From positions 18,218 to 82,217 of the forward strand of contig JBDTVZ010000001.1 of the NCBI GenBank assembly GCA_040006935.1: DNA of 64,000 nucleotides, read 5' to 3'. Positions 27,464-53,220 of this stretch are shown in pieces. The stretch comes from Candidatus Dojkabacteria bacterium. Lineage in GTDB: Bacteria; Patescibacteriota; Dojkabacteria; J137. Under the pieces are notes generated by a model, which was not told the DNA's origin, did not search any database, and worked only from the letters and a program-made list of their open reading frames with translations. Each line of letters begins with the position of its first letter. The stretch's first letter is position 1. Position numbers and translations under genes: made by a program.

Positions 27464-27465
27464 CT

Positions 27466-28485
27466 ATGGATCAACCACCTCAAGATTTGGTCAAAAAAAA
27501 GGGGAAAGTACTAGCTAGCCTTAACTTGTATCCAGAGCTTCTAAATCATCCTGATATGCAGGAGGATCGGCTAGCTACATTGAACCAAATTGGAGAAACT
27601 CTTTTAGGTTTGTTTCAAAAATTATTTAGTAACCCTGAGTACTACGGCGATGTATTTTTCATTGGTGGAATAGAAAAATGGCTTTCCGATTTAGAGAATA
27701 TTGAGATATTTGAAGCAGTAGTTCAACAACTTCGAACACTGGAGGAGATAGGGTCTGATCAAGCAGAATGGCATATTAGAAACTTTTTAAATAATGTAGC
27801 AAAAAGAGTTAAAAGTAATGGAGGTCAGTTATCACTACAAACAAATGATAAGTTAGGAATTACGGAAGCCGAAGCTGTTTTTAAGCAAATGGATAAAATT
27901 AGTGCAGAAAGAATTCATATCCCTGAGAATTTAAATATTTTATTGGACCAAAGATTTATAATTTCTGCACGCGAACTAGAAATAGATATGCAAAAGGTTT
28001 TAGCGCGTCCAAAAGTTACAGAAGTATCCTTTTTAGATCAGCCTAGAGCAGATTTCCAAAAAGAGATTGAGATGTACGATAATGATAGCGAAATTGATGG
28101 AGTTCTTTTGTTTATTCTTTCCAACTTAACAGGAGATGCTATGCAATATGTTATCAATCAAATGGTAAATAAATTAAAAAGAACTACTCAAACAGTTGTG
28201 GCAGTTCTTGAAAGGTATAGAACTTCGTTTGAAAGCAGAGTTTTGAGAGGAGAACAAATCTCGGTCTATGGATCGCCAATACGAGATTATGAATTAATTA
28301 TAAATGAAATACTTGATCTTATTAAAGAACAAGAGAAAAAGAATGGAGAGTATTTATTCGGTGCAGTAGATCTACTTAGAACCAAATCACCAGACGGGTT
28401 TGTAGGTATAACTAAAATGTCACAAATACTATTAACCACACATAGAGCAAGGTATAAAAGTAAAATTATAGCCTTACTAAAATAA
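27466..28485 (+). CDS. hypothetical protein between the giant genes
   Basis: 339-aa ORF, 2 nt after giant 1 and 20 nt before giant 2. No recognisable motif. Confidence 0.6.
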   Translation: MDQPPQDLVKKKGKVLASLNLYPELLNHPDMQEDRLATLNQIGETLLGLFQKLFSNPEYYGDVFFIGGIEKWLSDLENIEIFEAVVQQLRTLEEIGSDQAEWHIRNFLNNVAKRVKSNGGQLSLQTNDKLGITEAEAVFKQMDKISAERIHIPENLNILLDQRFIISARELEIDMQKVLARPKVTEVSFLDQPRADFQKEIEMYDNDSEIDGVLLFILSNLTGDAMQYVINQMVNKLKRTTQTVVAVLERYRTSFESRVLRGEQISVYGSPIRDYELIINEILDLIKEQEKKNGEYLFGAVDLLRTKSPDGFVGITKMSQILLTTHRARYKSKIIALLK

Positions 28486-28505
28486 ATCTCTTCTATAGTT
28501 CTAAA

Positions 28506-31500
28506 ATGCAGTACGATGAGATTAAACAAACACAAAATAATAATCTTACCGAAATTCAAAGAGAACGTGAATTAAAAGCTGCACAACTTCGAGCACAAAA
28601 TGCTTCTACAATTTTAAACAAAAAAATTAATCGGTCTTCATTTTCTAATTCTGCTAAAGAAGTTAAACCATTTGATTATCTTGAACGGCTAGAATGTTCC
28701 ATGACATTAGATAGAGTTGATTCAGAAAGAAATGGTACTAATATCAATACTCAAATTATAAATTGTGATTACTCTACAGAAATAGATTCTAAAGGTAGAG
28801 AAATAATTAAAATGACAGTGCCCCATCGGCTGGATTTTTTAGCACTAAATTTAAACCCAGGATCAGTTTTTATTTTTGATAGGTCTAACTATAGATTGCT
28901 ATCTATAGAACAAAAAGATCAGCAGAAAGTAGTAAATTCTGTTGAAGTTTGGCCTCATGTTGAAATACTATCTATAGATAAAATACTTTTCACATTCTCA
29001 GATTTACTTAATAAAGAGAAAATCGTAGCCTTTGAAAGTTTAGAAAATAATGTAATGCGTCTCAAAAAAGGTCCTTTTGATGGCTTCCCAAATAAAATTT
29101 ATTTCCAAAAATATAACCTTGAGAACCCAATATTTATTGAAGACTATGATGAAATTAAAAAAGCCTACCATGCTCCTGGGCAAGGGTCTTTTATTGATGT
29201 TGATTATAATATGGCTATTAAAGCGTTTAACCAAGCATCGAACATATTAGAAACCGAAGACAGAACTGCTGATTTTCAATACCCAGAAGTATTAAGATTA
29301 TTTTCTAAATTAAAAATAGCATTTGCTAAAGATTTAATTCCTAATGAAAATCCTCATGACACTGTTTTTGAATTGAGATTAAGAAACGAATTAAATATTG
29401 ATGGTGTACATATTTACGCAGGGGCAGTAATGAAAATTGATGTGAATGATCCAGAATTTTTTACAATAAAGTATCCTCCTCAAAATGGTGTCCAGATTGA
29501 GTTTATAGAAATAAATGGCACAAAATTATATGCACCAGGGGAAATTTTGTGTAGAAATACCTCCGAAGATCTCCAAATAACCTCAATAAATGGTGGCCAA
29601 CTCGAGAATATGGGAAGCGAAAGAGTTATTAAAATTATAAAAGCAAATAATGGATTTATTGGCTTGGTAGCAAATGATGAAGTAATTAAATTCACGAAAG
29701 ATCATAAAGTTTTAACTTTACTAAGTAATGTGGACCCATCAGTACAAATACTAATAAGTGATATTATGAAAAATAGATACTTTTTACATGATATTTACTC
29801 TGATAATTACCTAGAAGGGGCAATTGAACTTGTAAGTAATCACACAGGTTCTCTTGCTACAATAATATTTGAAGATGAACAACCTGGGAATATAATTATT
29901 CCAAACTATCCAAACATTCATCCATCGTTACACGGTCTTGCAATAGGCCAATTTGACAGATTAATTTTAGATAAAAAAGGTGAATTTGCAATCTTTGGCG
30001 TTGCTACTGAAAGATACGATATGCATTTTCGTGGAGTATGGTACGAAAGAATAGAACGAATTTTTATAAATTTTCGAACTGGAGAGGTTAGGTTTAGGTG
30101 TGATAGCTATTTTGAAGGTGGCAAAAGATACGGTCAAACTAAGTACAGTGAGAATACTTATATTATTGTCGATAATTTAGGCCTTAAACAAACAGGAGAT
30201 GGTATATTTTCTGAAGTCGAAAACAATGTGCCAAAGGGAGATGATTATAAGGACCACATTTCAAGGACGCTTAAAATTAAAGAAATAAGAATAGGAGATA
30301 TGAGACAGTTAAATGAAGATAGGATTGATATAACTGCATCATTTGACTCAATAGTATTAAATAACCAAGAAAACCCCACATTACATAACTGGATATACGC
30401 ACAGGCTCCATTTGGAAGTATTGTTAACTTTAATAGTAAAAATTCTATAATTGAAAGCATTGAAGTACCCTACGATACCTATATAAAATCTGGTGGGATA
30501 CGCGCATCACTAGGATCTAGCTTTAAAATAAGTGGTATAAGAAAAGTTTTATTTGAGGAAGATTCTCAGAATTTTCCATTAGATGTAAAGGAATTAAAAG
30601 GTGAAATTACTATTACATTAAATAATAAAATTTATAGGGCAAAAGATATTAGTGTTAATAGTTTAGGTTTAAAATTGGACAAATTCCCTTTAATTACTTG
30701 GGAGGTTATTTACAATGGTGCTACAGAATTACCTGATGAGTTATTAGTGGAAAATAATAGTGTAAATATACCAACAAAGAACGAAATTCTTTATCTTGCA
30801 AATCGATTAACTGTGCAGGTTAATAATAGGAAACCTGAAGATGACTTTGATCTAGAACAAAATGTAAATAGTTTAATCGGGCTAACAAGATGGCTATATG
30901 AATCTGCAAATAAATTAGGTGGCCCATTCAATCTAGCGGAATGGGTTACAATCTATAAACCATTACTTTATTATTACTATAACGACCCTGAGGCAGTAAT
31001 ATTGCTAATAATGGGCTTTATACCTAATTCAAACGGTAATATAGATCCAATAGATTACATGTTTCTTTATGCAACATACCTTGAGATTTTTAAACAAAGA
31101 TATCCGGAGGTAGAAAGTGAATTAATTTTACTATTGAGTAGTTTAAACCCCGATCTTAAATTTATATATAAGAATGAAATTAAAGATATTATAAGTAATT
31201 TTGAAATACTCGAAGATGAGAATAAGCAACATTTCCTAGACGAGTTAGATAGCATAAATATGGATACGCCTAGTCATATCCCAGTCCCAGTAAGTCACTC
31301 TCAAGTAGAAGGCTTCAAAGCAGACCAATTCTCAATAGAAAAAGGTTTTCTCAAATTTAATGAAGAACCTAAAGCAATCGATCTTTTACAAAGAATAGGT
31401 AACCTTCGAGAACTTTCAACTAGCTCTGAGCTTGACAAGCAAATAGAAATAATTAAAGAAAACGGTTCGAGAATTGATATGAATGTTGTTGGTCAGATTT

Positions 31501-33941
31501 CTCAAATCCTTGAAACAATAATAGGCTTTAAGATCGAAGGTTTAGATCTAGCTAAGAACTTTGTTGTATTTGGAATGATAATAAACTTTGCAAATAACTT
31601 ACGCGAATTAAAGAACAAAAGGTCTAAAGACTCTCAAGAAGAAATAAATATTGCTATAACTGAACTGCAGAATAAAATAAATAGAATTAAATCTGGCGAA
31701 TTAACAGAAGAAGAAATGCAATTTGAAATGTCTAATGAAAATGTATTGAAGATTTTAATGCACATGACCTCCGGAACTTTACCCAAAGAATATCTAGTAT
31801 TTACAATATTGATGTTGATTACTTCTGGTGTTGAAATTGCTGGAGTTAGAAACGTTTTAAAACTTGATCAAATTATAAAAAACCAAAGAGGAGATGATAT
31901 TGGAGTTCCGTATTTAAAGTATAGAGAGGAAATACTTGAAGTAAAAGCCACAGGAAATGTGATGGCACTACAAGAAGTTATTATAAAAAACGTAAGCATG
32001 TTAATCAACTACATGAGAAATTTTCATAATTACGAGGATTACTCCGAAGATTTTTTAGTAATGTGTAAATTATTGAACCTTAAAGAAGGTGAGTTCTCTA
32101 CCAACTGTTTTGGTATAGGGCTAATTTATCAAGCCATACTTGACTTAATGATTGGTGATATTTGTGAGATTAATTATGCAACTCTCCATCACGAATTAGG
32201 TAATGATATTGAAGACTGGTTTAAAAATCTGGGTGAAATAGTTATGGCGGGTCATGCTGTATTCATTATTAAACTTCCACTTATAGATGGAGAGGAAAAT
32301 AAATATATCATTGGAGATCCACTAAGTGTGATTAACAGCTTAGCTCAAAAAAATAAAAGAAAACCTTTAGACAAACATCATAATTGCATGGTTGTAAAGG
32401 AGTCCGAACTTATGCTAGACAATGAGATTAATTCTGTTCTTGAAAATACAAAATTCGTTACTATAGATCCTAATAAAAAAATCCGAATAGTTCAGAAAGA
32501 TAATAAAGAAATACAAATGAAGATAGATCCTAATGATGTTTATCAAGTATATAAAGACAGGAATTCTATTTTAACCTATGCAATGATTAGTTCCTTCAGA
32601 GATTTAAATGGCTACTTAACAACCATAGCGCCAGATGAAGGTGAAGTATTAATGGATATGATTACAGATTCAAAATATAAAGGAGATAGAAACAAAGCAT
32701 TTGAGAAGTATATGCTTTTATATAATAGATATTCAGGATTTGAATATAGATCTACAAACTCTAATCAAGTAATAGCATCGAATATAATATTATTAAATTT
32801 TGCTCTTGAAAATGATTATTATATTGAAGCTTTGTTCCTGGCCAATGTAAATAAAATAAAATTAGCCAAACTATATCCAGACAAAGACGACTACGATGAA
32901 TCTTTAATTTTCGATACGCAAAAAGCATTTATACTTACAAAAATAGCCAATCTCGATGAGACAGAAATCCTAAAATTAATTGAAGATAAAAAATATCTTT
33001 TAAGAAAAGAAGATATTACACTTATCTGGGAAAATGTCTCCTTTATAAATTTAACATTGCGTTTATTTAATGAAACAAAAGAGGATCAAAAAAGAACTCT
33101 AAAATTACTATCTTCTGAGTCACTTTACTATTTGATTTTTGATCCACTAAGATACAATAATATCCAGGAAATGAAAGACTTATGTAAAGAGATATTAAAA
33201 GTTGCTTTGGAAAATGATTATTTACCATATTCAGCTTATATTATAGAAAAACTAGTTAAGTTAAGTCCCGAAGACGAAACTCTGAAATTAGTAGAAGATA
33301 AGATTATAAAATTCATTGCTAAAACCGATAACTATATAATACTTACACAACTAAATCCACATTTAATTTTCTCAAAATTTATAGACAAAATTCATAAAGT
33401 TTTAGAAGTTAGTTTTGAGATACCAACTATCCAATCAATTTTAAACATATTGAATGGAGTGAAGGATGATAAAGTTATTGATGATCAATACGAAAGTCTT
33501 CACAAAGTATTAAGTAGTAATCACACTGCACTTGATAGAGCTGCTTATCGACATAAAGTTGAAGAAGAAAAAAGAATAGTTGCAGCTGTAGAGGCAAACA
33601 CTCATAGAATTGAGGAGATAAATAATCAAGTAAAAACTGAAGTGAGGTCAGGAGGGCAATCCTACCAATCCCTGCATCAAGAAGAAAAACCCCTTGAACT
33701 TGGAGACAACTATATAAAAATAACTGAAGAGGCTGTTTTCGGATCGATTGATCTACTCGTGAGTAAATATGGTGAACTCTCAGGAGACATAATGGCTCTA
33801 TTTCTTCGAGGAGCTGATGAAACAGTAATTCGTCTAGCAGAGAATAATTTGAGGAAGAAAGGAATATTACTTCCATCACCCGAAAATGCAGCTAAAAGGT
33901 TACAAGGACAAAATCTCCCATTGTTACAATCGAATTCTTAA
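28506..33941 (+). CDS. giant protein 2 (1811 aa), unknown family, no obvious TM or signal peptide
   Basis: Uninterrupted 5.4-kb ORF. Candidate papain-like Cys..His..Asp arrangement at ~32100..32335. C-terminal helical repeats (ALENDYYIEALF / ALENDYLPYSAYI). Confidence 0.8.
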   Translation: MQYDEIKQTQNNNLTEIQRERELKAAQLRAQNASTILNKKINRSSFSNSAKEVKPFDYLERLECSMTLDRVDSERNGTNINTQIINCDYSTEIDSKGREIIKMTVPHRLDFLALNLNPGSVFIFDRSNYRLLSIEQKDQQKVVNSVEVWPHVEILSIDKILFTFSDLLNKEKIVAFESLENNVMRLKKGPFDGFPNKIYFQKYNLENPIFIEDYDEIKKAYHAPGQGSFIDVDYNMAIKAFNQASNILETEDRTADFQYPEVLRLFSKLKIAFAKDLIPNENPHDTVFELRLRNELNIDGVHIYAGAVMKIDVNDPEFFTIKYPPQNGVQIEFIEINGTKLYAPGEILCRNTSEDLQITSINGGQLENMGSERVIKIIKANNGFIGLVANDEVIKFTKDHKVLTLLSNVDPSVQILISDIMKNRYFLHDIYSDNYLEGAIELVSNHTGSLATIIFEDEQPGNIIIPNYPNIHPSLHGLAIGQFDRLILDKKGEFAIFGVATERYDMHFRGVWYERIERIFINFRTGEVRFRCDSYFEGGKRYGQTKYSENTYIIVDNLGLKQTGDGIFSEVENNVPKGDDYKDHISRTLKIKEIRIGDMRQLNEDRIDITASFDSIVLNNQENPTLHNWIYAQAPFGSIVNFNSKNSIIESIEVPYDTYIKSGGIRASLGSSFKISGIRKVLFEEDSQNFPLDVKELKGEITITLNNKIYRAKDISVNSLGLKLDKFPLITWEVIYNGATELPDELLVENNSVNIPTKNEILYLANRLTVQVNNRKPEDDFDLEQNVNSLIGLTRWLYESANKLGGPFNLAEWVTIYKPLLYYYYNDPEAVILLIMGFIPNSNGNIDPIDYMFLYATYLEIFKQRYPEVESELILLLSSLNPDLKFIYKNEIKDIISNFEILEDENKQHFLDELDSINMDTPSHIPVPVSHSQVEGFKADQFSIEKGFLKFNEEPKAIDLLQRIGNLRELSTSSELDKQIEIIKENGSRIDMNVVGQISQILETIIGFKIEGLDLAKNFVVFGMIINFANNLRELKNKRSKDSQEEINIAITELQNKINRIKSGELTEEEMQFEMSNENVLKILMHMTSGTLPKEYLVFTILMLITSGVEIAGVRNVLKLDQIIKNQRGDDIGVPYLKYREEILEVKATGNVMALQEVIIKNVSMLINYMRNFHNYEDYSEDFLVMCKLLNLKEGEFSTNCFGIGLIYQAILDLMIGDICEINYATLHHELGNDIEDWFKNLGEIVMAGHAVFIIKLPLIDGEENKYIIGDPLSVINSLAQKNKRKPLDKHHNCMVVKESELMLDNEINSVLENTKFVTIDPNKKIRIVQKDNKEIQMKIDPNDVYQVYKDRNSILTYAMISSFRDLNGYLTTIAPDEGEVLMDMITDSKYKGDRNKAFEKYMLLYNRYSGFEYRSTNSNQVIASNIILLNFALENDYYIEALFLANVNKIKLAKLYPDKDDYDESLIFDTQKAFILTKIANLDETEILKLIEDKKYLLRKEDITLIWENVSFINLTLRLFNETKEDQKRTLKLLSSESLYYLIFDPLRYNNIQEMKDLCKEILKVALENDYLPYSAYIIEKLVKLSPEDETLKLVEDKIIKFIAKTDNYIILTQLNPHLIFSKFIDKIHKVLEVSFEIPTIQSILNILNGVKDDKVIDDQYESLHKVLSSNHTALDRAAYRHKVEEEKRIVAAVEANTHRIEEINNQVKTEVRSGGQSYQSLHQEEKPLELGDNYIKITEEAVFGSIDLLVSKYGELSGDIMALFLRGADETVIRLAENNLRKKGILLPSPENAAKRLQGQNLPLLQSNS

Positions 33942-35911
33942 ACTTGCGGTGGAACAGCTGAAACTTCTGTAGTAACAGGTTGTTCAATAGGCTGTGCTTG
34001 AGGAGTTACATTATCTGTTGGTAGAACTGTTCCTGGTTGTTCTAATGGTGGAGCCGAAGAAATATCTAACTGATCTCCTTCTTCATTTTCTACTTTCTGT
34101 TGAAGTAACTCATTAGGGTTTGTAGTTATCAAATTATGCTCATTTTGACTTGCAACAATTTGTATAGCAACATGATTAGCCCCAGCAAAAAATAATCCTT
34201 GTCCAATTCCTGCAGACATTAAAAAAGACTTTTCACCATCTGTAAGATAGAATACTTTCTTTAATTTATCTATCGCAGCTGGTGCTTGCTTCAATAATAT
34301 CTGCATGGATGAGTTATTAATTATTGCTTTACCATAATCTGAAGCTAAGAAGTCATCAACATCTTGTGTAATAGTTGTTAGACCTAATGCATATTTTCTA
34401 GCTCTCTTAGCAATTGAGTATACAAACTTGGCAGCATCTTCGTATTGCATCATAATCCAAGCTTCATCAATTATTAATAATCTTTTCCTCTTATCTCTTT
34501 TAATCTTGGTCCAAATGTAATCAAGCATTACATACATGGCCATTGGTCTTAAATCATCAGCTAAATCACGAATTGAAAATACTGTAAATGTATTGTGAAT
34601 GTTAACCGTGGATTTCCTATCAAACACACCAGATGCGGAACCTTTTAAATATTTTTCTAATCTACGAGCCATTGAATGGGATTCATCTTCCGACATTGCA
34701 TTTAAAATCTTATACAAATCTTCTAACAAAGGAGCTTCGTTTGAATGTGTTGATGGATCGGGTGTGATACCTTTTTCTTTGTACGTTAATATTAAAGCTC
34801 TATCTAAAATTGCTGCTTCCTCTGCAGTTACTGTTCCACCCAACATCATTCTAATTAATCCAGAGAGAGTTAAAATTTTAAATCGGAGTTCATCTTCATC
34901 AGCGTTAAATATCCCAGATAATTCAAAGGGATTCAATTTCTGAGCACCGTCTTGCGAGAATGATATATATTCTCCACCAACTGCATCACATAATCTATCA
35001 AATTCTTTTTCTGGGTCTATAATAATAATGTCAATTCCAAGCATTAAGGACCTCACAGCTTCCAATTTAACTGCATAGGATTTACCAGCTCCGGATGTAG
35101 CCAAAACGACTGAGTTAGCATTAGGAAGTGAAAATCTATCGAAAATAACTAAAGAATTATTATGAAGATTAACCCCATATAAAACTCCTTTATCCATTGT
35201 TAACTCACTACTGACGAATGGGAAAGTTGTAGCAATGGCAGTAGTATCCAAGTTTCTGGTCATATTTATTTTATCAAGACCATATGGAATTGTGCTTTGG
35301 AAACATTCTTCTTGTTGAAGTGTAGCAACTTTAATAATAATTCCAATCGTTGCCATTGTGCTCTCCAGATTCTTTGAAATTTTATCTAACTCTTCCATAG
35401 TATCTGCATGCAATGTTACGTACAAGGCATATTGGAAGAATTTTTCGTTCCCAGCGGCAAGCTGTTCTTGCAAAGTTAATGCATCTTTAAGTTGTACTGC
35501 AACAATAGGATCTCCTTGTCTACCTGCTTCAATTTCAATATTTATTGTTGCCTGAAACTCTGCAATTTTTCTTTTTAAGATTTTTAATATTTCACCAGTT
35601 TCAAAAGGATAATAATAAGTGCTGATGTCTACGGGATATTCAAAGTTAATTAATGGTTCTAACCAACTAGGAGAAACAACACTAGGAAAGCCGATAGCAA
35701 AATATGATCTAAAATACTTATTCCCTATTATTAAATTACTGAAGTTAACCTCAATGGCACTTGGTGCAATAATGTCTTTAACATCAATTAATCCTTGAGC
35801 AAATTTCTGAATAGATTGGTTCTCTCGAGCCAAAGCAGCAGCTTCTTGAGGGTTTATAGGTTTTGTACCTTTTTTAGGTTTTGCGTCTGGTATTAATCCG
35901 AATAAAGCCAT
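33938..35911 (-). CDS. virB4: VirB4/TrbE-class type IV secretion ATPase (C-terminal ~3/4 of a typical VirB4)
   Basis: YFRSYFAIGFPSVVSPSWLEPL, Walker A VVLATSGAGKSYAVK, IIIDPEKEF, NPFEL, Walker B RLLIIDEAWIMM, RKYALGLTTITQDVDDF, NSSMQILLKQ. Pro/Gln-rich C-terminal tail. Confidence 0.85.
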   Translation of the reverse strand: MALFGLIPDAKPKKGTKPINPQEAAALARENQSIQKFAQGLIDVKDIIAPSAIEVNFSNLIIGNKYFRSYFAIGFPSVVSPSWLEPLINFEYPVDISTYYYPFETGEILKILKRKIAEFQATINIEIEAGRQGDPIVAVQLKDALTLQEQLAAGNEKFFQYALYVTLHADTMEELDKISKNLESTMATIGIIIKVATLQQEECFQSTIPYGLDKINMTRNLDTTAIATTFPFVSSELTMDKGVLYGVNLHNNSLVIFDRFSLPNANSVVLATSGAGKSYAVKLEAVRSLMLGIDIIIIDPEKEFDRLCDAVGGEYISFSQDGAQKLNPFELSGIFNADEDELRFKILTLSGLIRMMLGGTVTAEEAAILDRALILTYKEKGITPDPSTHSNEAPLLEDLYKILNAMSEDESHSMARRLEKYLKGSASGVFDRKSTVNIHNTFTVFSIRDLADDLRPMAMYVMLDYIWTKIKRDKRKRLLIIDEAWIMMQYEDAAKFVYSIAKRARKYALGLTTITQDVDDFLASDYGKAIINNSSMQILLKQAPAAIDKLKKVFYLTDGEKSFLMSAGIGQGLFFAGANHVAIQIVASQNEHNLITTNPNELLQQKVENEEGDQLDISSAPPLEQPGTVLPTDNVTPQAQPIEQPVTTEVSAVPPQV

Positions 35912-35926
35912 ATTTTTAATTCTTAA

Positions 35927-36601
35927 TTAGCTGGATCTAACAATTCCAGTAGAAACATCAGAATCTCTAAGATTAAGTATCTCAAGACCCAATTTATCTG
36001 GTTCGTACACAGAGTAATATAGTTTTATTAATTCATCATTTGTTAATTGTTTTGCTGCTACACCCATATTCTGATATTGTTTAATTATCGAATCCCTTTT
36101 TGGATATAACTCCTCTTTAGCCTTTTCTACAATTCTTGTTACATGGGCAATTCTTTCAGGTGTTCCAAAAGTTTCTTTAAACCAGTTATTTTTTATAACA
36201 GGTAAATTTAAACTTGGAATCACAGTATAAAATCTTTTATCTAGAATCTGAGTTGTTTGTGTTAGGTTATTTATGAAGTCCTGGTACAAAGAAACCTGTT
36301 CTGTTACAGCAGTCGAAGTAATTTTCGATTTATAACTTTCTAGAAGTTTTAAATAATTTGCAATGTCAGTTCTTTGAGTTTTAATTACAATTTGTACTGG
36401 GAAATTTGTAGCATTTAAAAATGCAGCAAAAGATCCGATTTTAGCATCTTGTTCCGGTCCATCAAGTAAATCAAAATTAAGCGAAGTAGTTTCTATCACA
36501 ATAGACACTTTTCCACTTTTCAGTACAACCATATCATCTTTAATATCTGCGATATCTAAATGCTCCTGCGTGCTAATTCTTTTTGGATCGAAAATACCCA
36601 T
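35927..36601 (-). CDS. stand-alone VirB4 N-terminal-domain-like protein (apparent split VirB4, part 1)
   Basis: TQEHLDIADIKDDMVVLKSGKVSIVIETTSLNFDLLDGPEQDAKIGSFAAFLNATNFPVQIVIKTQRTDIANYL follows my recollection of the N-terminal pattern of Gram-positive VirB4 homologues. Lies 15 nt upstream of the ATPase ORF. ATG 36601 preferred over TTG 36622. Confidence 0.5.
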   Translation of the reverse strand: MGIFDPKRISTQEHLDIADIKDDMVVLKSGKVSIVIETTSLNFDLLDGPEQDAKIGSFAAFLNATNFPVQIVIKTQRTDIANYLKLLESYKSKITSTAVTEQVSLYQDFINNLTQTTQILDKRFYTVIPSLNLPVIKNNWFKETFGTPERIAHVTRIVEKAKEELYPKRDSIIKQYQNMGVAAKQLTNDELIKLYYSVYEPDKLGLEILNLRDSDVSTGIVRSS

Positions 36602-36761
36602 AATACAATTAAAAGTTCTCAATTAAAAATTAAAAGATTTCTCCTTCAACTATAACAGTATATAGTAAATAGCTGAAAGGATACAATAGGAAATTATTAA
36701 GGACCTATAGCATTAGTCAATAGAAGTTAATCAAAGAATCTAAAAATTTGGGACTGGTTAT

Positions 36762-36800: not shown

Positions 36801-36825
36801 ACCTGATGGCGCAGGTTATTTTTTT
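36801..36825 (+). terminator. short hairpin plus T-tract between promoter and HD gene (possible attenuator)
   Basis: ACCTG(36801-36805)/CAGGT(36812-36816) followed by TTATTTTTTT. The stem is only 5 bp. Confidence 0.3.
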
Positions 36826-36834
36826 AATTTTTAA

Positions 36835-37383
36835 TTGAAATGTATGCCTTCTCCAGAAGAATCAGAAAAATTATTATTAGAATATATACAAAATGAGTCA
36901 TTGTTGAATCATTGCAGAATGGTTGCGAAAGCAATGGGAGCTTATGCAAAATCTTTAAATCTTTCCGAAAATGAAGTAGAGGAATGGTACACAGCAGGAT
37001 TATTACACGACTTAGATTGGGAAAAATTTCCTGATGAACACCCGAATAAGGCTGTAAACGAAATACTTCCAGCAAAAGGTTATCCTGAGAATGTAATTCT
37101 TGCTGTTAAAGCACACGGACCTCAAAGAACTGGTAAATATCCAGAAACTAAAATCGAAAAATACTTATTTGCATGCGATGAACTATCTGGATTTCTAAAT
37201 GCATCGTCCTTAATGAGGCCTACAAAATTCGAAGGTATGGAAGTTAAATCGGTAAAGAAAAAATTAAAAGATAAGCATTTTGCAGCTAATGTAAGCAGAG
37301 AGGATATAGAAGAAGGAGCAAGATTAATTGAGAGACCAATTGAGGAGCATATTCAGTTTTTGATAAATGTGTTTAATAATTAA
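36835..37383 (+). CDS. HD domain-containing phosphohydrolase
   Basis: NHCRMVAKAM...AGLLHDLDWEKFPDEHP (H..HD motif), then KAHGP. Confidence 0.75.
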   Translation: MKCMPSPEESEKLLLEYIQNESLLNHCRMVAKAMGAYAKSLNLSENEVEEWYTAGLLHDLDWEKFPDEHPNKAVNEILPAKGYPENVILAVKAHGPQRTGKYPETKIEKYLFACDELSGFLNASSLMRPTKFEGMEVKSVKKKLKDKHFAANVSREDIEEGARLIERPIEEHIQFLINVFNN

Positions 37384-38599: not shown

Positions 38600-38908
38600 G
38601 GTATCGTCATTAAAAATTAAAATACCGTTTGAGAAGCTCCTCTAAATTAAGTATACTACCGAGTACTATATCGGGCAAATATAATCTCTATCATCAGTGT
38701 AGTATTAAGGATAGAAAAAATAGAGAGTTCGTGAAATCTGATCGTGAAAACATAGAGCCAGTAATCTTTAGTTGATTTAGCTAACATTCATCGGAAATTC
38801 ACAAATGCTAAAAAACTATAATGTTTAAAGTTACAAAGTTTGAATAACCTTTTAACATTTTAACTTTTGAGCATTGCAACATATTTCTTAATTTTTAATT
38901 AATTTATA

Positions 38909-40208: not shown

Positions 40209-40964
40209 TTACTCGAGAAACGTAAGTGCATACATCAGTGCAAACCCTATCACAAACATTGATATCTCAATCACATATTTTTTTACTCCAGACTTTTCGT
40301 GTATTTCAGGTAAAAGATCAGCCAATGCAATATAAATAAATTGGCCAGCAGCTAAAGGGATTAGAAACTTCTGTGCACCTTGAACATAATTACTTAATAT
40401 TAAAGTGAACACGGCTCCGGCCACAGCTGTTAACGCAGTCAGAAAATTTACTATTAAAACTTTCTTTTTAGACCAGCCAGAATACAAAAGGATTCCGACA
40501 TCAGCAAATTCTTGTGGAATCTCATGAACAATAATGGCAATAGTACTTGCTACTCCAGCAATCGGACTTACCAAAAAACTTGCTGCAATTGCAATTCCAT
40601 CTAAAAAATTATGTATTCCATCTCCAAATGTATTTAAATTTGCTAAAACTGATTTTTTAACATGCTCATGCTTATATTCATCTGAAGTATCATGGCTACA
40701 ATGAAAATATGCCTCTATCACTAACATTAATAAAATTCCTGCAAAAACAAAAACCATTGCTTCAATACTATAGCCATTTTCCGAAATACTTTCTCCTATC
40801 AAATGAAGGAAAGCGTCACCCAACAAGGCTCCCGCAGCAAATGCAATTAAAGAAGTTATAAAATTACTTTTTTCAGAAATTTTTCTAAAAAATAATAAAA
40901 CGCCTACAAATGAGATTAAACTCACAATAAAAGTTGCAAGCAGAGAATATAATAAAGTTTCCAT
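40209..40964 (-). CDS. zupT: ZIP family zinc/metal transporter (ZupT-like)
   Basis: Polytopic. HNFLDGIAIA, HEIPQEFADVGILL, and a His-rich loop SHDTSDEYKHEH. ATG 40964 preferred over the longer ORF. Confidence 0.8.
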   Translation of the reverse strand: METLLYSLLATFIVSLISFVGVLLFFRKISEKSNFITSLIAFAAGALLGDAFLHLIGESISENGYSIEAMVFVFAGILLMLVIEAYFHCSHDTSDEYKHEHVKKSVLANLNTFGDGIHNFLDGIAIAASFLVSPIAGVASTIAIIVHEIPQEFADVGILLYSGWSKKKVLIVNFLTALTAVAGAVFTLILSNYVQGAQKFLIPLAAGQFIYIALADLLPEIHEKSGVKKYVIEISMFVIGFALMYALTFLE

Positions 40965-41002
40965 ATTACAATTTAATAAATAAATTTCTTTCCTGCCTAC
41001 CA

Positions 41003-41359
41003 TTAGGCATGGCAATCTTCACATTTTCCTTTTAAATTAAGTTCAAAATTTTCAAGACTAGCACCATTAGGAATAACTTGTTTTAAGAATTTATCATCTA
41101 CTTCTACATGCACAACCTTTTCGCAATTATTACAAATAAAATGTTGATGATGATCTCCAATTTTGCTTAATTCATAACTCATAACACCTTTTTTTACATT
41201 AACTTCCCTCAAAATGCCTTGCTCTACAAATAAAGATAAGTTTCTATAAATAGTTGCCCTGTCTATATCTGGAATTAAACCACAGACTTGGCTAGCTGTT
41301 AAAAGGAAACCATTAGAAAATAATTTTAATATTCTGTCTCTTTTCTTCGAATTTTTCAT
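41003..41359 (-). CDS. zur: Fur family transcriptional regulator (Zur-like)
   Basis: 118 aa. Winged helix (ATIYRNLSLFVEQGIL), HHQHFICNNCEKV...CEDC metal sites. Directly upstream of the ZIP transporter. Confidence 0.8.
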   Translation of the reverse strand: MKNSKKRDRILKLFSNGFLLTASQVCGLIPDIDRATIYRNLSLFVEQGILREVNVKKGVMSYELSKIGDHHQHFICNNCEKVVHVEVDDKFLKQVIPNGASLENFELNLKGKCEDCHA

Positions 41360-41389
41360 ATATAAATGCGATTAAGTTGCGAAGATAAT

Positions 41390-41408
41390 AATGCAACATT
41401 GTCGCATT
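41390..41408. promoter_or_regulatory. candidate Fur/Zur operator palindrome
   Basis: AATGCAACATTGTCGCATT is an imperfect 8-3-8 palindrome, 31 nt upstream of the zur start. A related half-site-like TGCGA-N6-TGCGA lies at 41367-41383. Confidence 0.4.
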
Positions 41409-41498
41409 GTCAAATATTACTTATAGTTATTTTTAATTGAGTAAAATTGTTCTCTGTATACAATTATTTATCACGAAACTACAGCATATAGTATTTCC

Positions 41499-41527
41499 TT
41501 GACTTACTTATCACAACTTTCTAAAGT
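41499..41527 (+). promoter_or_regulatory. sigma70-like promoter (TTGACT-17-TAAAGT)
   Basis: TTGACT 41499-41504, a 17-nt spacer, and TAAAGT 41522-41527. Heads the long leader of 41867..43858. Confidence 0.4.
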
Positions 41528-41555
41528 ATAAGTTACAGCATTCTAAATATTTAGA

Positions 41556-41790
41556 AATTGGGAAAGAGGAGTAACTCAATTAAAAATTATAAATTTAAAG
41601 ATGAATAGCAAATGAGATTCTCTTTAATTGATTACTTTTAATTTTTAATTGTAAAATCTCCCACTGTGCCGCAACTGTGATGAGAGAGCTTGAGTTTATG
41701 AGAGGATAAGTTACGAATGAAAAATTCCCGTAACACAATTACTCATCATCTCATTCTCTATCTAAGTCAGAAAACCAATCTGTGCCTACA
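41556..41790 (+). promoter_or_regulatory. cobalamin-riboswitch-like aptamer (candidate)
   Basis: GTAAAATCTCCCACTGTGCCGCAACTGTGA (41651-41680) resembles the conserved GGTGAAAATCC...GCCCGCCACTGTGA core. AAGTCAGAAAACC (41764-41776) resembles the B12 box. TGGGAAAGAGGAGTAACTC is at 41559. Intervening hairpins TGATGAG/CTCATCA and GTTACG/CGTAAC. Confidence 0.4.
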
Positions 41791-41834
41791 AAGAATTTCT
41801 TTGGAGTCTACGAGCAATAGACATTAGTTTTTAG

Positions 41835-41861
41835 CAGTTGTACGCTCACAGCTGTTTTTTT
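41835..41861 (+). terminator. leader terminator (putative riboswitch expression platform)
   Basis: CAGTTGT-acgctc-ACAGCTG followed by TTTTTTT, ending 6 nt before the TTG start at 41867. Confidence 0.6.
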
Positions 41862-41866
41862 ACAAT

Positions 41867-43858
41867 TTGGAAGAGTTATTAGGTACAATAAATATAGATA
41901 GTCTAGAAGGAGAAAACTTTAATCAGGAAATCTTTAGTATTCTTGAAAAATACAATTCTCTTATAAATACTCTTCAAACCGAAGGGTTAGAATCTATAGA
42001 AATTATAGGGCATGAAATGGCTACCGTAACACTTTACAAAAACCTCTTCCGCGTACAACTAGAAAAGTTGTTGCAAACTCTACTAATAAAAGAAATAGAT
42101 AAACTGAGTAATGTGAACGAAAGGCAATTGCTTTCATCTATTACATTAGAAAATATTTCCATATTTTTAGAAAATGATTTGTTTCTTGATGGAAGTTCTA
42201 TTTCGAATACACTCAAAAATATTGTGGTGAATATAATGAATAAAGTAAACATTATTTCGGAGAATTGGACTTTCCTTTTAAACACAGACACCAGCGTTAG
42301 CCCAATTTTAAATAATATAAATAAGGAAGTTGAGTATTTATTTGCAGATAATGTTAATACTTTCTTAGGTGAAAACTTAATTTTAAGAGAAGATTTGTTT
42401 AAGGATAAGTTAAAAAATTTTGGTGTTGACGATCAAATTAAATTAATGGACTTAATAAAAGTAAATGGAGCGAGAAAGATTGAGTTTGGTTATGACATGG
42501 ATTTTGGAATGATTAAATACCTTATTGATTCTGCAATTAGGTGTAAGAATCAATTACATAACGAAAGAGAAGATATTGAGCTATTCAATTTAATTACAAT
42601 TCTAATTACTTTTTTTAGAAATAATTTAGGTACTCAGAAAATATTAGATGAAGTAATTAATATTTATGAGGATAGGCCGGAAGTAATCGCTCATTTAAAA
42701 TATTTAATGAATCTGGAGTTATTACCAAAACTAATAATAGAAAATAGTCCTCCTATATACAAGAAAGTCCAAAAAAATTTGATGTTTAGAATTTATGAAC
42801 ATACCGATGGTGGAGTAAAAGTACATATTCATTCCATACCTTACAGCCAAATTGATGCAGAAAAATCTATTGATGATTTTATAATTAATAATGGATTAGA
42901 AATACAATCATTTCCTAATAGTGTGAATAGACAAACTGAAAATAAAATACTTTCAAGACTAGTTGCAACTAATTTAAGTTTTGAAGAGGCCGTTAAGATG
43001 CACACAAGTATAAGTAAAATAGGGTTACAAACCATTAAAAATAACGACTCTTTATTAGATCCAATTCTCGAAAAACTAAACCATTCATTAAAACCTTTTG
43101 TAAAAGAGGTAGCACAAATACTTCCACAATTAATTAATGATCAACGACTAAGAGCACAGTATGTGGATCAATACGAAAGCAGAATTAAAGGAATTCATTT
43201 TCACCATGCACCAAAATCTAGTATTGAAACAGATTTAAGCGAAGCAGAACTCACGGATCTTCAAGAAAAAATTATGAAAAGAGTTATGGAAGGGCAAAGT
43301 TTCGAAGCAGCAATTGGAGATATTGTAGATAGAGAGGATTTTAATTTAAGAGTGGGATCTCAAGGGGATTGTGTTCAATTTGAGACAAAAATTGAGCAGG
43401 TCGCAGTAGTAGCACAAAAAAGTGAGGATTTATCTGGATATAAAGATGGCACAGTCCTAACTAGCAAGAAAGTGGAAGGAAATGGTTTTCAAAGTACAAT
43501 TAGAGAAAAGGTAATTGATGGGAAGAAGATTAATACAGTAACTTGTCTAGTTTGCCAAAAAGAATTTGATACTTGTAATGACAAATGCCCTGAATGTGAT
43601 ACATCTAGAGAAATGCAATATAACGCTATCTATAACGGGAATACTAGATTAGGGAAGGAGGCTATTAAGACTATTCAGGAAAGAATAGATCAAAAGAGAT
43701 CAGAAGTTGAGTCTCAACTAAATGACAATGTTGTAAAAGAAACTAACCAATCTATGGACCCTTGGCTTGGGAAAAAAGTTGAAGGAGTTTTTAGCCAGTT
43801 AATTTCTGTAGTAACATTTGGTGCTGTGAAGGAAAGCCCTAAATATTATGAGAATTAA
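41867..43858 (+). CDS. hypothetical protein with C-terminal zinc ribbon
   Basis: 663-aa ORF (TTG start in the track; first in-frame ATG ~50 codons in). CLVCQKEFDTCNDKCPECD near the C-terminus. No recognisable family. Confidence 0.55.
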   Translation: MEELLGTINIDSLEGENFNQEIFSILEKYNSLINTLQTEGLESIEIIGHEMATVTLYKNLFRVQLEKLLQTLLIKEIDKLSNVNERQLLSSITLENISIFLENDLFLDGSSISNTLKNIVVNIMNKVNIISENWTFLLNTDTSVSPILNNINKEVEYLFADNVNTFLGENLILREDLFKDKLKNFGVDDQIKLMDLIKVNGARKIEFGYDMDFGMIKYLIDSAIRCKNQLHNEREDIELFNLITILITFFRNNLGTQKILDEVINIYEDRPEVIAHLKYLMNLELLPKLIIENSPPIYKKVQKNLMFRIYEHTDGGVKVHIHSIPYSQIDAEKSIDDFIINNGLEIQSFPNSVNRQTENKILSRLVATNLSFEEAVKMHTSISKIGLQTIKNNDSLLDPILEKLNHSLKPFVKEVAQILPQLINDQRLRAQYVDQYESRIKGIHFHHAPKSSIETDLSEAELTDLQEKIMKRVMEGQSFEAAIGDIVDREDFNLRVGSQGDCVQFETKIEQVAVVAQKSEDLSGYKDGTVLTSKKVEGNGFQSTIREKVIDGKKINTVTCLVCQKEFDTCNDKCPECDTSREMQYNAIYNGNTRLGKEAIKTIQERIDQKRSEVESQLNDNVVKETNQSMDPWLGKKVEGVFSQLISVVTFGAVKESPKYYEN

Positions 43859-44901
43859 TTATTTATCTCATACTTAATCTTATCTTTCAAAGTATCAATT
43901 ATAGATTTCTTTCCTTTAGTTTCAGTAGACTTTAAGGATTCTAAGATACTCTTTTTATTTAAATCTTTCCCAAGAATCAAAAGTGCAGTTATTTTTTCTT
44001 CACCATTATCCCATTCTTTATAAGTGTAATCTTTTCTAGATACAACATATTGAAGAAGGTATTTCTTTGAATTATTCCTAGTATCTTTAATAGGTGCATT
44101 GTCAAAATATAAAAACCCTTTTGCCCTAATAACGTTTTTTGGAAACTTTCTTAAGACTTCTTCAAATTTATAAAAATCTAAGGGTACTTCAGATTTAAAG
44201 AAAATTTCGTCAATATTTTCATGATGATGCTCCACTTCACCTTCATGATCATGCGATTCATGACCTCCTTCCTCAACAATCTTCTGAAACTCTTCCAAAG
44301 TTTTTAAATCACTCATAGATCTATCTATTAAAATGGACATATCTAAATCATCATTAATTTCGTAAACTAATGCTTTTGGATTTAAACTGGTGACCAAATC
44401 CTTCAGTTGCTCTATCTTTTCTGGTCTGGATTTATTTATCTTAGAAATAAGAATTATATTAGCAGTTGAGACTTGAATCCTTGCGATGTCGTAATTATCA
44501 AATTGTTCTTCAAAATTAACAGCGTCTACCACACAAATCACGGCATCTAATTTAAAATCTTTCTCAAGGCTGGGATTATAAAAGGTTAAACCTAAAGCTA
44601 GAGGATCCGATAAACCTGAGGCTTCAAGAATAATATAGTTAGTTTCTGGATTTGCTTTCATTACTTTATTAAAAGCTGAAATTAAATCTCCTCTTGCAAC
44701 ACAGCAAACGCAACCATTGCTTAGTTCCACGACTTCATCTTCAGTTGGCACAAGAAATTGGCTTTCTAGCGAAACATCGCCGAATTCGTTTAAAATAACT
44801 CCTAGCTTTAAGTCCTTGTTATTTTCAATTATTTTGTTTAAAAAAGAGGTTTTACCTGCTCCTAAGAACCCTGTTATTAATGTTATTGGAATTCTAGACA
44901 C
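43855..44901 (-). CDS. COG0523/CobW-family GTPase metallochaperone (ZigA/YeiR-like)
   Basis: ITGFLGAGKTSFLNKI (P-loop), NGCVCCVARGDL (CxCC), EASGLSDP, His-rich HESHDHEGEVEHHHEN. Confidence 0.85.
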   Translation of the reverse strand: MSRIPITLITGFLGAGKTSFLNKIIENNKDLKLGVILNEFGDVSLESQFLVPTEDEVVELSNGCVCCVARGDLISAFNKVMKANPETNYIILEASGLSDPLALGLTFYNPSLEKDFKLDAVICVVDAVNFEEQFDNYDIARIQVSTANIILISKINKSRPEKIEQLKDLVTSLNPKALVYEINDDLDMSILIDRSMSDLKTLEEFQKIVEEGGHESHDHEGEVEHHHENIDEIFFKSEVPLDFYKFEEVLRKFPKNVIRAKGFLYFDNAPIKDTRNNSKKYLLQYVVSRKDYTYKEWDNGEEKITALLILGKDLNKKSILESLKSTETKGKKSIIDTLKDKIKYEINN

Positions 44902-45085
44902 GAAAAACTATTAAAAATTAAAAGAGATAATAGAATTATTATACATTATTAAAAATAGTCAAAAAAATAACTAATTACTAAATATGAAAACTTACGGATT
45001 GATTATTGGCTATTTGTTATTCGGCATTAATTAGCACTCGGGCTAACCTCTTGCTAAAATTAAAATCTGGTGATATTATGTCTGA

Positions 45086-52200: not shown

Positions 52201-53220
52201 ATGGACAAAAATGAACAAAAAAATATCAAATATTTCCAGTTAGCTTCTATAATATTTAGTATTATCTTTTTCATATTAGTTTTTCAAGCAATTTACCCGC
52301 ACTACATATTTGGTGTTTGTGACTATACTCGGTGGTTGACAATTCCGATGGTTCTTTTTGCCATACTAAGTTTCTTAACATTTTTACCTAACTTTATTAT
52401 CCGATTTAAACAAAGATCACAAACTAAATTATTTTTAGTTAATCTAATCTTCATTTTGCTTACAGTTTCTATACTGTTTATTTCAATTTTAAGTAACCTT
52501 TGTGGTGGTTCTACAGGTATAACTGGAGCCACTGGTTTAAACGGGACAATTGGAGTATCAGGGAATATTGGTGGAACGGGTGAACAAGGAAAACCAGGAT
52601 CAACTGGATCAAAAGGGATTTCTGGGCAAACTGGTACCCAGGGTAACTCCGGTGAAGCAGGTGCAGTTGGAGCTGGTGGAACACCTGGATCTGTAGGATC
52701 TACTGGAAGCAATGGGATACCCGGAACAAACGGTTTAGTTGGAGGTTTAGGGTTACAAGGGCCACCAGGTCCACAGGGAGATCCAGGAGCTGCTGGTACT
52801 CCAGGAACAAGTGCTAATATTAACTATGGGTACATTTATAATACTGGTGCCCAATCAGTAGCAATTGATGCTCCTATTCTTTTCAGCTCGTCCGGACCAA
52901 TGGTTGGAGTCACACATACTGCTGGAACATCTACAATTACTATTACTAATGCTGGAGTATATTCAATTAATTTTTCAGTATCAGGGGCAGAAGCTAATCA
53001 ATTTACTGTATATATAAATGGCACACCATCTCCTACAACTACTTATGGCTCAGCAGCTGGTATCCAACAGAATAATGGACAAGCAATTCTTATACTCGGT
53101 GCTGGTGATGTTTTAACTGTTGTAAATCATTCTTCTGCAGCTGCTGTAACTCTTACAGCTCTAGTTGGAGGGACACAATCAACAGTAAGTGCTTCAGTAC
53201 TTATTAGACGATTAGATTAA
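52201..53220 (+). CDS. membrane-anchored collagen-like triple-helix repeat protein with BclA/C1q-like C-terminal domain
   Basis: Three N-terminal TM helices, ~34 uninterrupted G-X-Y triplets (52504..52810), then a beta-rich C-terminal domain (YIYNTGAQSVAIDAPILF...ITNAGVYSINFSVSG...VLTVVNHS). Confidence 0.8.
   Translation: MDKNEQKNIKYFQLASIIFSIIFFILVFQAIYPHYIFGVCDYTRWLTIPMVLFAILSFLTFLPNFIIRFKQRSQTKLFLVNLIFILLTVSILFISILSNLCGGSTGITGATGLNGTIGVSGNIGGTGEQGKPGSTGSKGISGQTGTQGNSGEAGAVGAGGTPGSVGSTGSNGIPGTNGLVGGLGLQGPPGPQGDPGAAGTPGTSANINYGYIYNTGAQSVAIDAPILFSSSGPMVGVTHTAGTSTITITNAGVYSINFSVSGAEANQFTVYINGTPSPTTTYGSAAGIQQNNGQAILILGAGDVLTVVNHSSAAAVTLTALVGGTQSTVSASVLIRRLD

Follow-up and report, generated by a model that had tools for sequence, protein, structure and literature searches.

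A probable corrinoid riboswitch with two large loop insertions upstream of an orphan zinc-ribbon protein gene in Candidatus Dojkabacteria

The stretch of DNA considered here (the window) comprises 64,000 nucleotides (nt) of a Candidatus Dojkabacteria contig (JBDTVZ010000001.1, positions 18,218 to 82,217), has a G+C content of approximately 31%, and contains a gene for a protein of 663 amino acids (aa) that is preceded by a structured leader. An earlier reading of the letters of this DNA (the sequence-only reading) had proposed that the leader resembles a cobalamin riboswitch with its own terminator. The elements of the leader and the gene that follows it, all on the plus strand, are these.

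41499-41527, plus strand: sigma-70-type promoter TTGACT-17-TAAAGT (promoter scan, 9/12 matches)
41534-41538, plus strand: 5' strand of helix P1, UACAG, which pairs with 41780-41784 (hand alignment)
41541-41556, plus strand: P2 hairpin, UUCUAA-AUAU-UUAGAA, with compensatory changes within the window's clade
41557-41566, plus strand: 5' strand of P3, AUUGG, which pairs with 41775-41779, and junction J3/4, GAAAG (the 'GGGAA' block)
41568-41661, plus strand: P4, GGAG (41568-71) with CUCC (41658-61), enclosing an 86-nt hairpin (41572-41657)
41664-41673, plus strand: P5/L5 core CUGUGCCGCA, invariant in 14 of 14 loci
41675-41770, plus strand: P6, CUG (41675-77) with CAG (41768-70), carrying an 83-nt variable hairpin extension (41681-41763)
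41764-41784, plus strand: B12-box region AAGUCAGAAAA, 3' strand of P3 (CCAAU) and 3' strand of P1 (CUGUG)
41789-41803, plus strand: linker hairpin CAAAGA...UCUUUG in J1/13, found in the window's clade and replaced by CCC..GGG hairpins in the others
41806-41822, plus strand: P13 regulatory hairpin, GUCUA-CGAGCAA-UAGAC
41833-41861, plus strand: intrinsic terminator (9-bp stem, loop of 6 nt, U7) that ends 5 nt upstream of the TTG start codon; the scan match itself is 41833-41856 plus its tail
41867-43858, plus strand: regulated gene, 663 aa, TTG start, no Shine-Dalgarno motif

Most of the individual elements named in the sequence-only reading are where it had placed them. The core motif GTAAAATCTCCCACTGTGCCGCAACTGTGA occupies 41651-41680 and the B12-box-like AAGTCAGAAAACC occupies 41764-41776, nested hairpins (TGATGAG/CTCATCA and GTTACG/CGTAAC) are located between the core and the box, and the open reading frame (ORF) at 41867-43858 begins with TTG, its 663-aa product carrying a Cys cluster in the C-terminal part. 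The promoter that had been proposed was found again by the promoter scan. The GGGAA block is likewise present, at 41560-41564, one base away from the start of 41559 assigned to it, and the terminator before the ORF is present with its 9-bp stem and T-run. A gap of ~85 nt between the GGGAA block and the core, which had been flagged as atypical, corresponds to the 86-nt hairpin (41572-41657) inserted in the loop of P4 and missing from compact orthologues.

Transcription is predicted to start ~7 nt 3' of the promoter, at the 5' strand of P1. Taken by itself, the promoter match does not exceed chance expectation, as promoter-like hexamers were not enriched in the scan (8 sites vs 17.6 expected in shuffles); the -35 element, the 17-nt spacing and a TAnnnT -10 element are, however, conserved across five orthologous loci (among those named, L001, L002, L004 and L005). 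A 36-aa ORF within the leader (41717-41827) begins in the variable extension of P6, is not conserved, and was set aside as spurious.

Conservation was assessed in a sample of 14 loci encoding homologues of the 663-aa protein, made up of the window and 13 further loci (given numbers such as L001), in which the named records are Candidatus Dojkabacteria. The sequence-only reading had made its proposal depend on conservation of the leader upstream of orthologues, and in this respect it held, as the same element lies directly 5' of the gene in all 14 loci. Five close relatives of the protein are 35-51% identical to it, and the element is kept even in L008, where protein identity falls to 24%, and in L015, the weakest profile match tested (E=6e-6). 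(Note that a profile search of genome contigs with the protein family returned only the contig of L002.)

Comparison with the cobalamin models of Rfam, which had also been put forward as a check, had a divided outcome, in that the window copy received no cobalamin score whereas homologous leaders exceeded the gathering scores (31.5 bits for RF00174 and 36.5 bits for RF01689). In particular, the leaders of L009 (45.3 bits), L011 (43.0 bits) and L010 (38.5 bits) lie above gathering for RF00174, and those of L014 (44.3 bits) and L008 (42.4 bits) lie above gathering for RF01689. Below gathering are the leaders of L013 (33.6 bits), L002 (31.4 bits) and L007 (27.9 bits; identical in sequence to L004) with RF01689 and those of L012 (27.6 bits) and L001 (19.8 bits) with RF00174, and in these five sub-threshold leaders a cobalamin-clan model is the top match for that stretch. 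The leaders without any Rfam match (window, L003 and L005) are exactly those that carry an insertion in the P4 loop.

For the window, Rfam at gathering thresholds returned only tRNA-Gly over the whole 64 kb and no cobalamin family, so that no gathering score assigns the window copy to clan CL00101 (RF00174, RF01482 and RF01689). The missing score reflects a lack of sensitivity of the models towards two insertions of ~85 nt, namely the 86-nt hairpin in L4 and the 83-nt extension of P6, and clan membership of the window copy therefore rests on its homology to the Rfam-positive leaders. That homology was captured by a covariance model (R1) seeded with L003, L008, L009 and L010 only, none of which belongs to the window's clade. 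(MAFFT seeds A4 and A5 misaligned P1 and P2, and the 4-sequence seed A6 was thus used for R1; the hand block alignment was checked base by base against the locus sequences.) R1 matches the window at 41532-41825 with 41.8 bits and an E-value between 1e-7 and 3e-7, with all 157 model positions covered and zero non-canonical pairs flagged, and this is its single match in the entire window. The R1 alignment of the window places insertions of 83 nt in L4 and 77 nt in L6.

In the R1-derived alignment of 13 leaders, standard pairs occupy 96.1% of cells vs 82.6% in shuffles, and when partners were slid by 1-3 columns only 33-45% of cells remained paired. Double-sided changes occur in 17 of the 27 pairs, and the covariation score is 0.437 vs 0.188, with none of 500 shuffles reaching 0.437. 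Because this alignment was fitted to the structure, the pairing is somewhat inflated, although the compensatory changes are visible in the raw sequences. Six helices (P1, P2, P3, P4, P6 and P13) show compensatory changes, and the junction architecture of the clan (P1/P2/P3/P4/P5/P6) is thus backed by covariation. (RNAalifold applied to the raw MAFFT alignment A2 gave a fragmentary structure and suggested a pairing between ACAATTT in the promoter spacer and AAATTG at the start codon. This pairing was rejected; its 5' partner is probably not transcribed, being 5' of the likely start site, and in L003, L008, L009 and L010 it is the -10 box, TACAAT, while in the window the two strands no longer match.) Chance similarity within an AT-rich intergenic region that is devoid of functional RNA and contains nothing beyond a promoter, a terminator and Fur-type operators would fit the blank Rfam result in the window and the lack of enrichment of promoter-like hexamers. 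Conservation in 14 of 14 loci together with covariation nevertheless excludes it, five relatives exceed the Rfam thresholds, and the sole R1 match in 64 kb has an E-value of ~1e-7; we give this explanation almost no weight.

The compensatory changes can be followed helix by helix. P1 occurs as ACAG/CUGU, GUAG/CUAC and CAGAA/UUCUG in three subgroups; P3 as AUUGG/CCAAU, GUUGG/CCAAC, GCUGG/CCAGC and UCGG/CCGA; P4 as GGAG/CUCC, GAGG/CCUC, GAAG/CUUC, ACUG/CAGU and GCUG/CAGC; and P6 as CUG/CAG, CGG/CCG and AGG/CCU. The core expected of the clan, with GGGAA in J3/4, a ..CCGCAACUGU.. core and a B12 box of the form AGYCMGgAgaCC, is present in the window as GGGAAAG (41560-66), CUGUGCCGCAACUGUGA (41664-80) and AAGUCAGAAAACC (41764-76), the counterparts of which in orthologues fall in matching consensus columns of RF00174/RF01689. 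Likewise, in orthologues the CUGUGCCGCA core aligns with the RF00174 core GCuGCCCCCGCaACUGUAA, and the B12-box region aligns with the boxes AGCCAGGAGACC and AGUCcGAGcGCC of the Rfam models. Loop L5 (UGCCG, 41666-70) is a candidate kissing-loop partner. Taken as a whole, these features make it probable that window positions 41534-41825 are a corrinoid riboswitch of clan CL00101, with a P1-P6 junction and a core formed by GGGAA, CUGUGCCGCAACUGU and the B12 box.

The two insertions raise the question of whether the window copy might instead be a decaying relic, that is a leaky constitutive attenuator whose aptamer they have inactivated. They measure 83-86 nt and fall in L4 and L6, the loops of the class-II T-loop contact; the window copy has no Rfam match, and its terminator is thermodynamically favoured locally even without ligand. 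Nevertheless, the five species of the clade, the proteins of which are only ~50% identical, retain every core nucleotide, and P1-P4, P6 and P13 stay paired through within-clade compensatory changes. In particular, P2 (AA/UU, AG/CU and UA/UA) and P4 (GGAG/CUCC, GAGG/CCUC and GAAG/CUUC) covary around an invariant core at this level of protein identity, which argues for continuing selection and not decay. Moreover, the insertions are self-contained hairpins at loop apices, the usual site of tolerated expansions, and the gene would be silent if a strong terminator acted constitutively 5 nt from its start codon, as there is no promoter further downstream. We therefore think it improbable that the window copy is a relic.

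The L4 insertion takes the place of a 7-nt L4 T-loop and forms a hairpin of its own (-15.0 kcal/mol); 7-nt T-loop-like versions of L4 (UUCAAUU, UGAAAAU and UGAAAUU) are retained in L008-L015. The extension of P6 in the window also folds as a hairpin (-21.0 kcal/mol). Across the sample this extension measures 0 nt in L008, 10-32 nt in the remaining compact leaders and 77-93 nt in three loci (the window, L001 and L005), and the extensions share no sequence similarity. We considered the L4 insertion as a mobile element and rejected this, as merely one short AT-rich motif from it recurs elsewhere.

That motif, the 17-nt A/T-rich CTTTTAATTTTTAATTG, has 13 matches with at most 3 mismatches vs 4 expected, a number reached by 0 of 100 shuffles, and copies of it lie at the following positions.

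35913-35929, 36620-36636, 36821-36837, 38607-38623, 38885-38901 and 44908-44924: copies of CTTTTAATTTTTAATTG
41577-41593 and 41635-41651: two inverted copies of CTTTTAATTTTTAATTG, which make the stem of the L4 insertion

The motif occurs at or just 5' of several start codons, and its final TTG is the start codon in two cases; it could be an initiation region lacking a Shine-Dalgarno motif or a promoter for leaderless mRNAs.

Downstream of the aptamer, the stem of P13 covaries (GUCUA/UAGAC, AUCUA/UAGAU, GUUCA/UGAAU and CCA/UGG) and its loop, CGAGCA, is nearly invariant, one L13 base differing in L003 and L015. Five pairs are possible between L5 (UGCCG) and L13 (CG(A)GCA), with one bulged A. In kissing loops of cobalamin riboswitches, one or more nucleotides of L13 always stay unpaired, and L13 has to be presented in a stem-loop (PMC5028336); the L5/L13 complementarity of the window fits this rule. 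A regulatory role of P13 is supported by the start codons found there in other loci. In L015 the main ATG lies within the 3' strand of P13 (2743), in L011 and L012 (2975-3003 in each) upstream ORFs of 7 codons (MNKYNSN* and MNKYNIK*) begin in L13/the 3' strand of P13 and end in a stop codon that directly abuts the main ATG, and in L013 (~2960-2975) and L014 (~2358-2372) upstream ORFs of 4 codons (MNIC* and MDNY*) begin in the same place. The window's clade has no start codon in P13, and within this clade a canonical terminator is found in the window copy only.

When the aptamer helices were imposed on the leader, P13 and the terminator formed (fold -69.2 kcal/mol). Without constraints, the optimal fold (-76.5 kcal/mol) has the 5' strand of P1 paired with the 3' arm of the terminator, and an antiterminator joins 41804-15 (the 5' strand of P13 plus L13) to 41834-47 (the 5' arm and loop of the terminator). 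In co-transcriptional snapshots, this antiterminator is the lowest-energy local fold (-14.8 kcal/mol) until the 3' arm of the terminator has been transcribed. We regard the aptamer and P13/terminator architecture as established, and from the folding we infer a kinetically controlled, corrinoid-dependent OFF switch that would act through transcription termination. Binding of a corrinoid would allow L5 (UGCCG) and L13 (CG-A-GCA) to form a ligand-stabilised kissing loop of the sort described for other cobalamin riboswitches; this would lock P13, so that the terminator at 41833-41861 would form and the gene would be off. Without ligand, 41804-41815 would pair with 41834-41847 as an antiterminator and the gene would be transcribed.

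A separate observation concerns the terminator loop of the window (41835-41847, GUACGCUC), which shares GUACGCU with the loop of a hairpin in L003 (~4984-5001, GGUACGCUAAAA); this L003 hairpin lies at the position of the terminator and is a non-terminator. A hairpin at this position may be ancestral and may have been lost in L001, L002, L004 and L005.

Compared with the class-II cobalamin riboswitches (RF01689 AdoCbl-II, and the hydroxocobalamin type of env8), the window element shares the compact four-way junction with GGGAA in J3/4 and a P4 hairpin, a short P5/L5, a P6 closed by an AAGUC-G box, and a downstream P13 loop complementary to L5 with an unpaired base. The start codons in P13 of L015 and L011-L014 resemble the placement of the ribosome-binding site of env8. 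It differs in having a P2 hairpin, which the RF01689 model lacks, in the 86-nt insertion that replaces the L4 T-loop and the 83-nt hairpin in L6, and in the use of an intrinsic terminator, not burial of a ribosome-binding site. With class I (RF00174; E. coli btuB and Thermoanaerobacter types) it shares the order P1-P2-P3, a CUG..CCGCAACUGUAA core, a GGUGAAAAUCC-type P4/L4 in relatives, the site at which P6 is extended, and a B12 box of the form AGYCAGGAUACC. Many class-I cobalamin riboswitches act through a transcription terminator. Unlike class I, the element has a plain variable hairpin as its P6 extension, without conserved peripheral helices (the P7-P11 region); varying between 0 and 93 nt and lacking conservation, this extension does not correspond to the class-I peripheral domain. 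L5 is UGCCG here, whereas the class-I consensus is C-rich. The yvrC-type element of B. subtilis (PMC7367189) and the metE/ppe2 elements of M. tuberculosis (PMC11260477) are reported as atypical cobalamin riboswitches and provide precedents for functional aptamers that are off-consensus in the periphery. The latter (PMC11260477) are also reported to be coupled to an upstream ORF, a precedent for the 7-codon ORFs of L011 and L012. A search of the literature on cobalamin riboswitches in Patescibacteria, candidate phyla and Dojkabacteria found nothing relevant.

The protein encoded downstream of the riboswitch carries the motifs NEREDxE and IIExSPPxY and a C-terminal 4-Cys zinc ribbon, with a Cys cluster at C560/C563/C570/C574/C577. 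An exhaustive profile search across 1.84 billion representatives placed its family in only 26 clusters (50% identity), the proteins being ~520-720 aa in length. In this family R234, E238, E292, S294, P295, P296 and M306 are invariant, and at least 90% of members conserve C502, C560, C563, C574 and C577. Neither the 663-aa protein nor any of 29 family members has a match in Pfam, NCBIfam or PADLOC, and sequence likeness to PDB entries is limited to the Cys cluster, the matches being generic zinc ribbons. No signal peptide and no clear membrane span can be read from the 663-aa sequence. Structure prediction, which the sequence-only reading had suggested as a test for a B12-binding fold, was carried out, and the AlphaFold2 model from an alignment of 29 sequences is confident (predicted local distance difference test, pLDDT, 86.5; predicted template modelling score, pTM, 0.73) and has no fold match in the PDB; weak Foldseek matches to bacteriophytochromes (E 0.6, template modelling score 0.07) are not significant. 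(A first AlphaFold model, built from 6 sequences, had a pLDDT of 65 and meaningless Foldseek matches, and was replaced by the 29-sequence model.)

Two identities were considered and rejected for this protein. NrdD was considered on account of the C-terminal zinc ribbon followed by a conserved Gly; of its hallmarks, an NRDD domain, a ten-stranded alpha/beta barrel and the glycyl-radical motif RxxGY, none was found, the 29 members having no Pfam match and the model no fold match. MetE, a zinc-dependent target of B12 riboswitches built from Meth_synt_1/Meth_synt_2 TIM barrels, was rejected on the same absence of Pfam matches in 29 members and of a PDB fold. The 663-aa protein is, as far as the model allows, an orphan of Dojkabacteria type with a new predicted fold and a zinc ribbon. 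The genes of the close orthologues (window, L001-L005 and L008) all begin with TTG and have an A/U-rich 5' flank and no Shine-Dalgarno motif. In the window as a whole, ORFs frequently begin with TTG or GTG.

The genes and sites that flank the riboswitch and the 663-aa gene in the window are these.

40209-41015, minus strand: ZIP zinc transporter gene, divergent
41003-41359, minus strand: Fur-family regulator gene, divergent
41368-41380 and 41393-41405: 6-3-6 operator-like inverted repeats GCGATTAAGTTGC and GCAACATTGTCGC (consensus in orthologous loci, TGCAACnnnGTTGCA)
43855-44901, minus strand: COG0523 (CobW/ZigA-like) GTPase gene with CxCC and a His-rich stretch, convergent, overlapping the 663-aa gene at the 3' end by 4 nt (43855-43858)

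A convergent, 3'-overlapping COG0523 GTPase gene is also present in L001, L002, L003, L004 and L008 (with a 24-nt overlap in L008), and this arrangement thus persists to 24% protein identity. The Fur-family regulator of the window has CxxC pairs, and a divergent Fur-family regulator with a ZIP or ZnuABC importer is found in the window, L001-L003 and L008, the regulator of L001 being followed by ZnuA, ZnuC and ZnuB. Fur and ZIP genes lie upstream in L012 and ZnuBC-like genes lie 2 kb away in L011. There are no zinc-type neighbours within ~3 kb in L009, L013, L014 and L015, which makes the riboswitch-protein pair the constant unit. In L005, an ORF at 585-2741 (P0005, 718 aa) has a tail of ~75 residues that matches the C-terminus of the COG0523 protein of the same locus in the same orientation; this explains the precomputed CobW_C match of P0005, and the tail reflects either a genuine fusion or an artefact of assembly, with an inverted join at the end of the contig.

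The operator-like boxes overlap the strong minus-strand promoter of the Fur/ZIP genes (TTGACA-17-TATTAT, 41413..41385) and do not overlap the riboswitch promoter. A search for GCRACnnnGTYGC boxes gave no other matches in the 64 kb and none upstream of the COG0523 gene. The locus resembles Zur regulon loci with a COG0523 metallochaperone (ZigA/ZagA/YciC type) in that a Fur repressor, ZIP/ZnuABC and COG0523 adjoin the gene, and differs from them in that the boxes lie only over the regulator's own promoter. Between the boxes and the riboswitch promoter sits a block, CTTATAGTTATTTT(T/C)AATTG (41399-41442), that is conserved in the window, L001, L002 and L004 and partly in L005 and L003. Coinciding with this block is a second promoter-like site on the plus strand (TTGTCG-17-TATAGT, 41399-41427), whose -35 element overlaps the right box; this site may serve as an additional promoter, controlled by the regulator, from which transcription enters the riboswitch.

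Several observations weigh against the window element being a corrinoid riboswitch. Rfam with permissive filters (E<=10) gave no cobalamin-clan match in 41300-42000 (701 nt), where the matches obtained are chance-level noise from microRNA and small nucleolar RNA families (MIR828, snoRNAs). J6/3 is AAAA in the window vs GAUA in Rfam-positive relatives, so that the box is off consensus there. The L4 T-loop, which in class II is highly conserved and directs global folding (PMC6158498), is split in the window by the 86-nt hairpin (UAACU remains on the 5' side and UAAAAU on the 3' side), and tertiary packing must therefore differ; an insertion also splits this loop in L005, and in the closest relatives, L001, L002 and L004, it has shrunk to a tetraloop. 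The bases that pair L5 with L13 never vary across the 14 loci, which leaves the proposed contact without covariation support. P13 plus the terminator (-17.0 kcal/mol) slightly beats the antiterminator (-14.8 kcal/mol) locally without ligand, so that switching would rest on kinetics. Finally, the flanking genes indicate zinc rather than B12.

Some of the same observations could be accommodated if the element descends from a cobalamin riboswitch that, in the window's clade, has switched to another ligand (tetrapyrrole-like or metal-related) and still gates a terminator. The changes in this clade fall at functional sites, with the L4 T-loop lost or interrupted, J6/3 reading AACA, AGCA or AAAA and not GAUA, and the GCC(A/G)AA stretch lost from J1/2; its Rfam scores are all sub-threshold or absent; and the window locus is flanked by a Fur-family regulator, ZIP/ZnuABC importers and a COG0523 GTPase. 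However, the clade keeps the core elements GGGAA, CUGUGCCGCAACUGU and AGUCAG..ACC together with loops L5 and L13, J6/3 and J1/3 are naturally variable in class-II cobalamin riboswitches (PMC6158498), and Rfam-positive canonical aptamers control the same protein family elsewhere, which makes the same physiological logic the simplest. We consider a changed ligand unlikely, and a corrinoid riboswitch remains the reading that we favour. The RNA is a divergent, insertion-bearing member of a known cobalamin clan, and the main interest lies in the orphan protein.

From its invariable coupling to the riboswitch, the 663-aa protein is by inference B12-related, and thus a candidate corrinoid-related protein, whose role might lie in uptake or binding or be that of a B12-independent substitute; the cell most likely depends on it under corrinoid shortage. 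An attractive possibility is that the protein requires zinc, spares B12 and is served by the COG0523 GTPase. We tentatively suggest, as a possibility that is less likely than not, that it is a hitherto unrecognised zinc-dependent B12-sparing protein of candidate-phyla bacteria that would be made only without corrinoid and metallated by the COG0523 GTPase, or else a new cytoplasmic corrinoid-handling protein.

Three further observations concern other parts of the loci. In the candidate-phyla contig of L013, positions 65-173 give a sub-threshold match to a T-box leader (51.1 bits vs a gathering score of 93; E=1.4e-8), and the gene that follows resembles one for glycyl-tRNA synthetase. At 20906-35911 of the window, very large ORFs (2185 aa and 1811 aa) adjoin a gene for a TraG/VirD4-like P-loop ATPase (33938-35911, minus strand), and TraG-like and TraC-like genes occupy the equivalent position in L003, which suggests a conserved type-IV-secretion-like cluster at 20906-35911. 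Lastly, the ORF at 52201-53220 encodes collagen triple-helix repeats and a BclA C-terminal domain; a fibre protein of this exosporium type would not be expected in a candidate-phyla genome.

The findings show how lineage-specific loop insertions can hide a real riboswitch from all three curated cobalamin models, and counts of riboswitches in candidate-phyla genomes are thus probably too low. The 14 leaders also form a natural series for the evolution of expression platforms around a fixed kissing loop, with a start codon in P13 in one leader, an upstream ORF in P13 in four, and an intrinsic terminator in the window. Unknown genes linked to riboswitches have been a fruitful path to new vitamin biology, and here one orphan protein family, in organisms of minimal metabolism that presumably scavenge corrinoids, is tied to a cobalamin riboswitch at every locus examined, which provides a lead into B12 biology. 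The recurrent zinc-type neighbours suggest a testable link between B12 and zinc economy; if the protein is indeed a B12-sparing zinc protein, the locus would wire B12 status, through the riboswitch, to zinc supply, through the Fur regulator and the importers.

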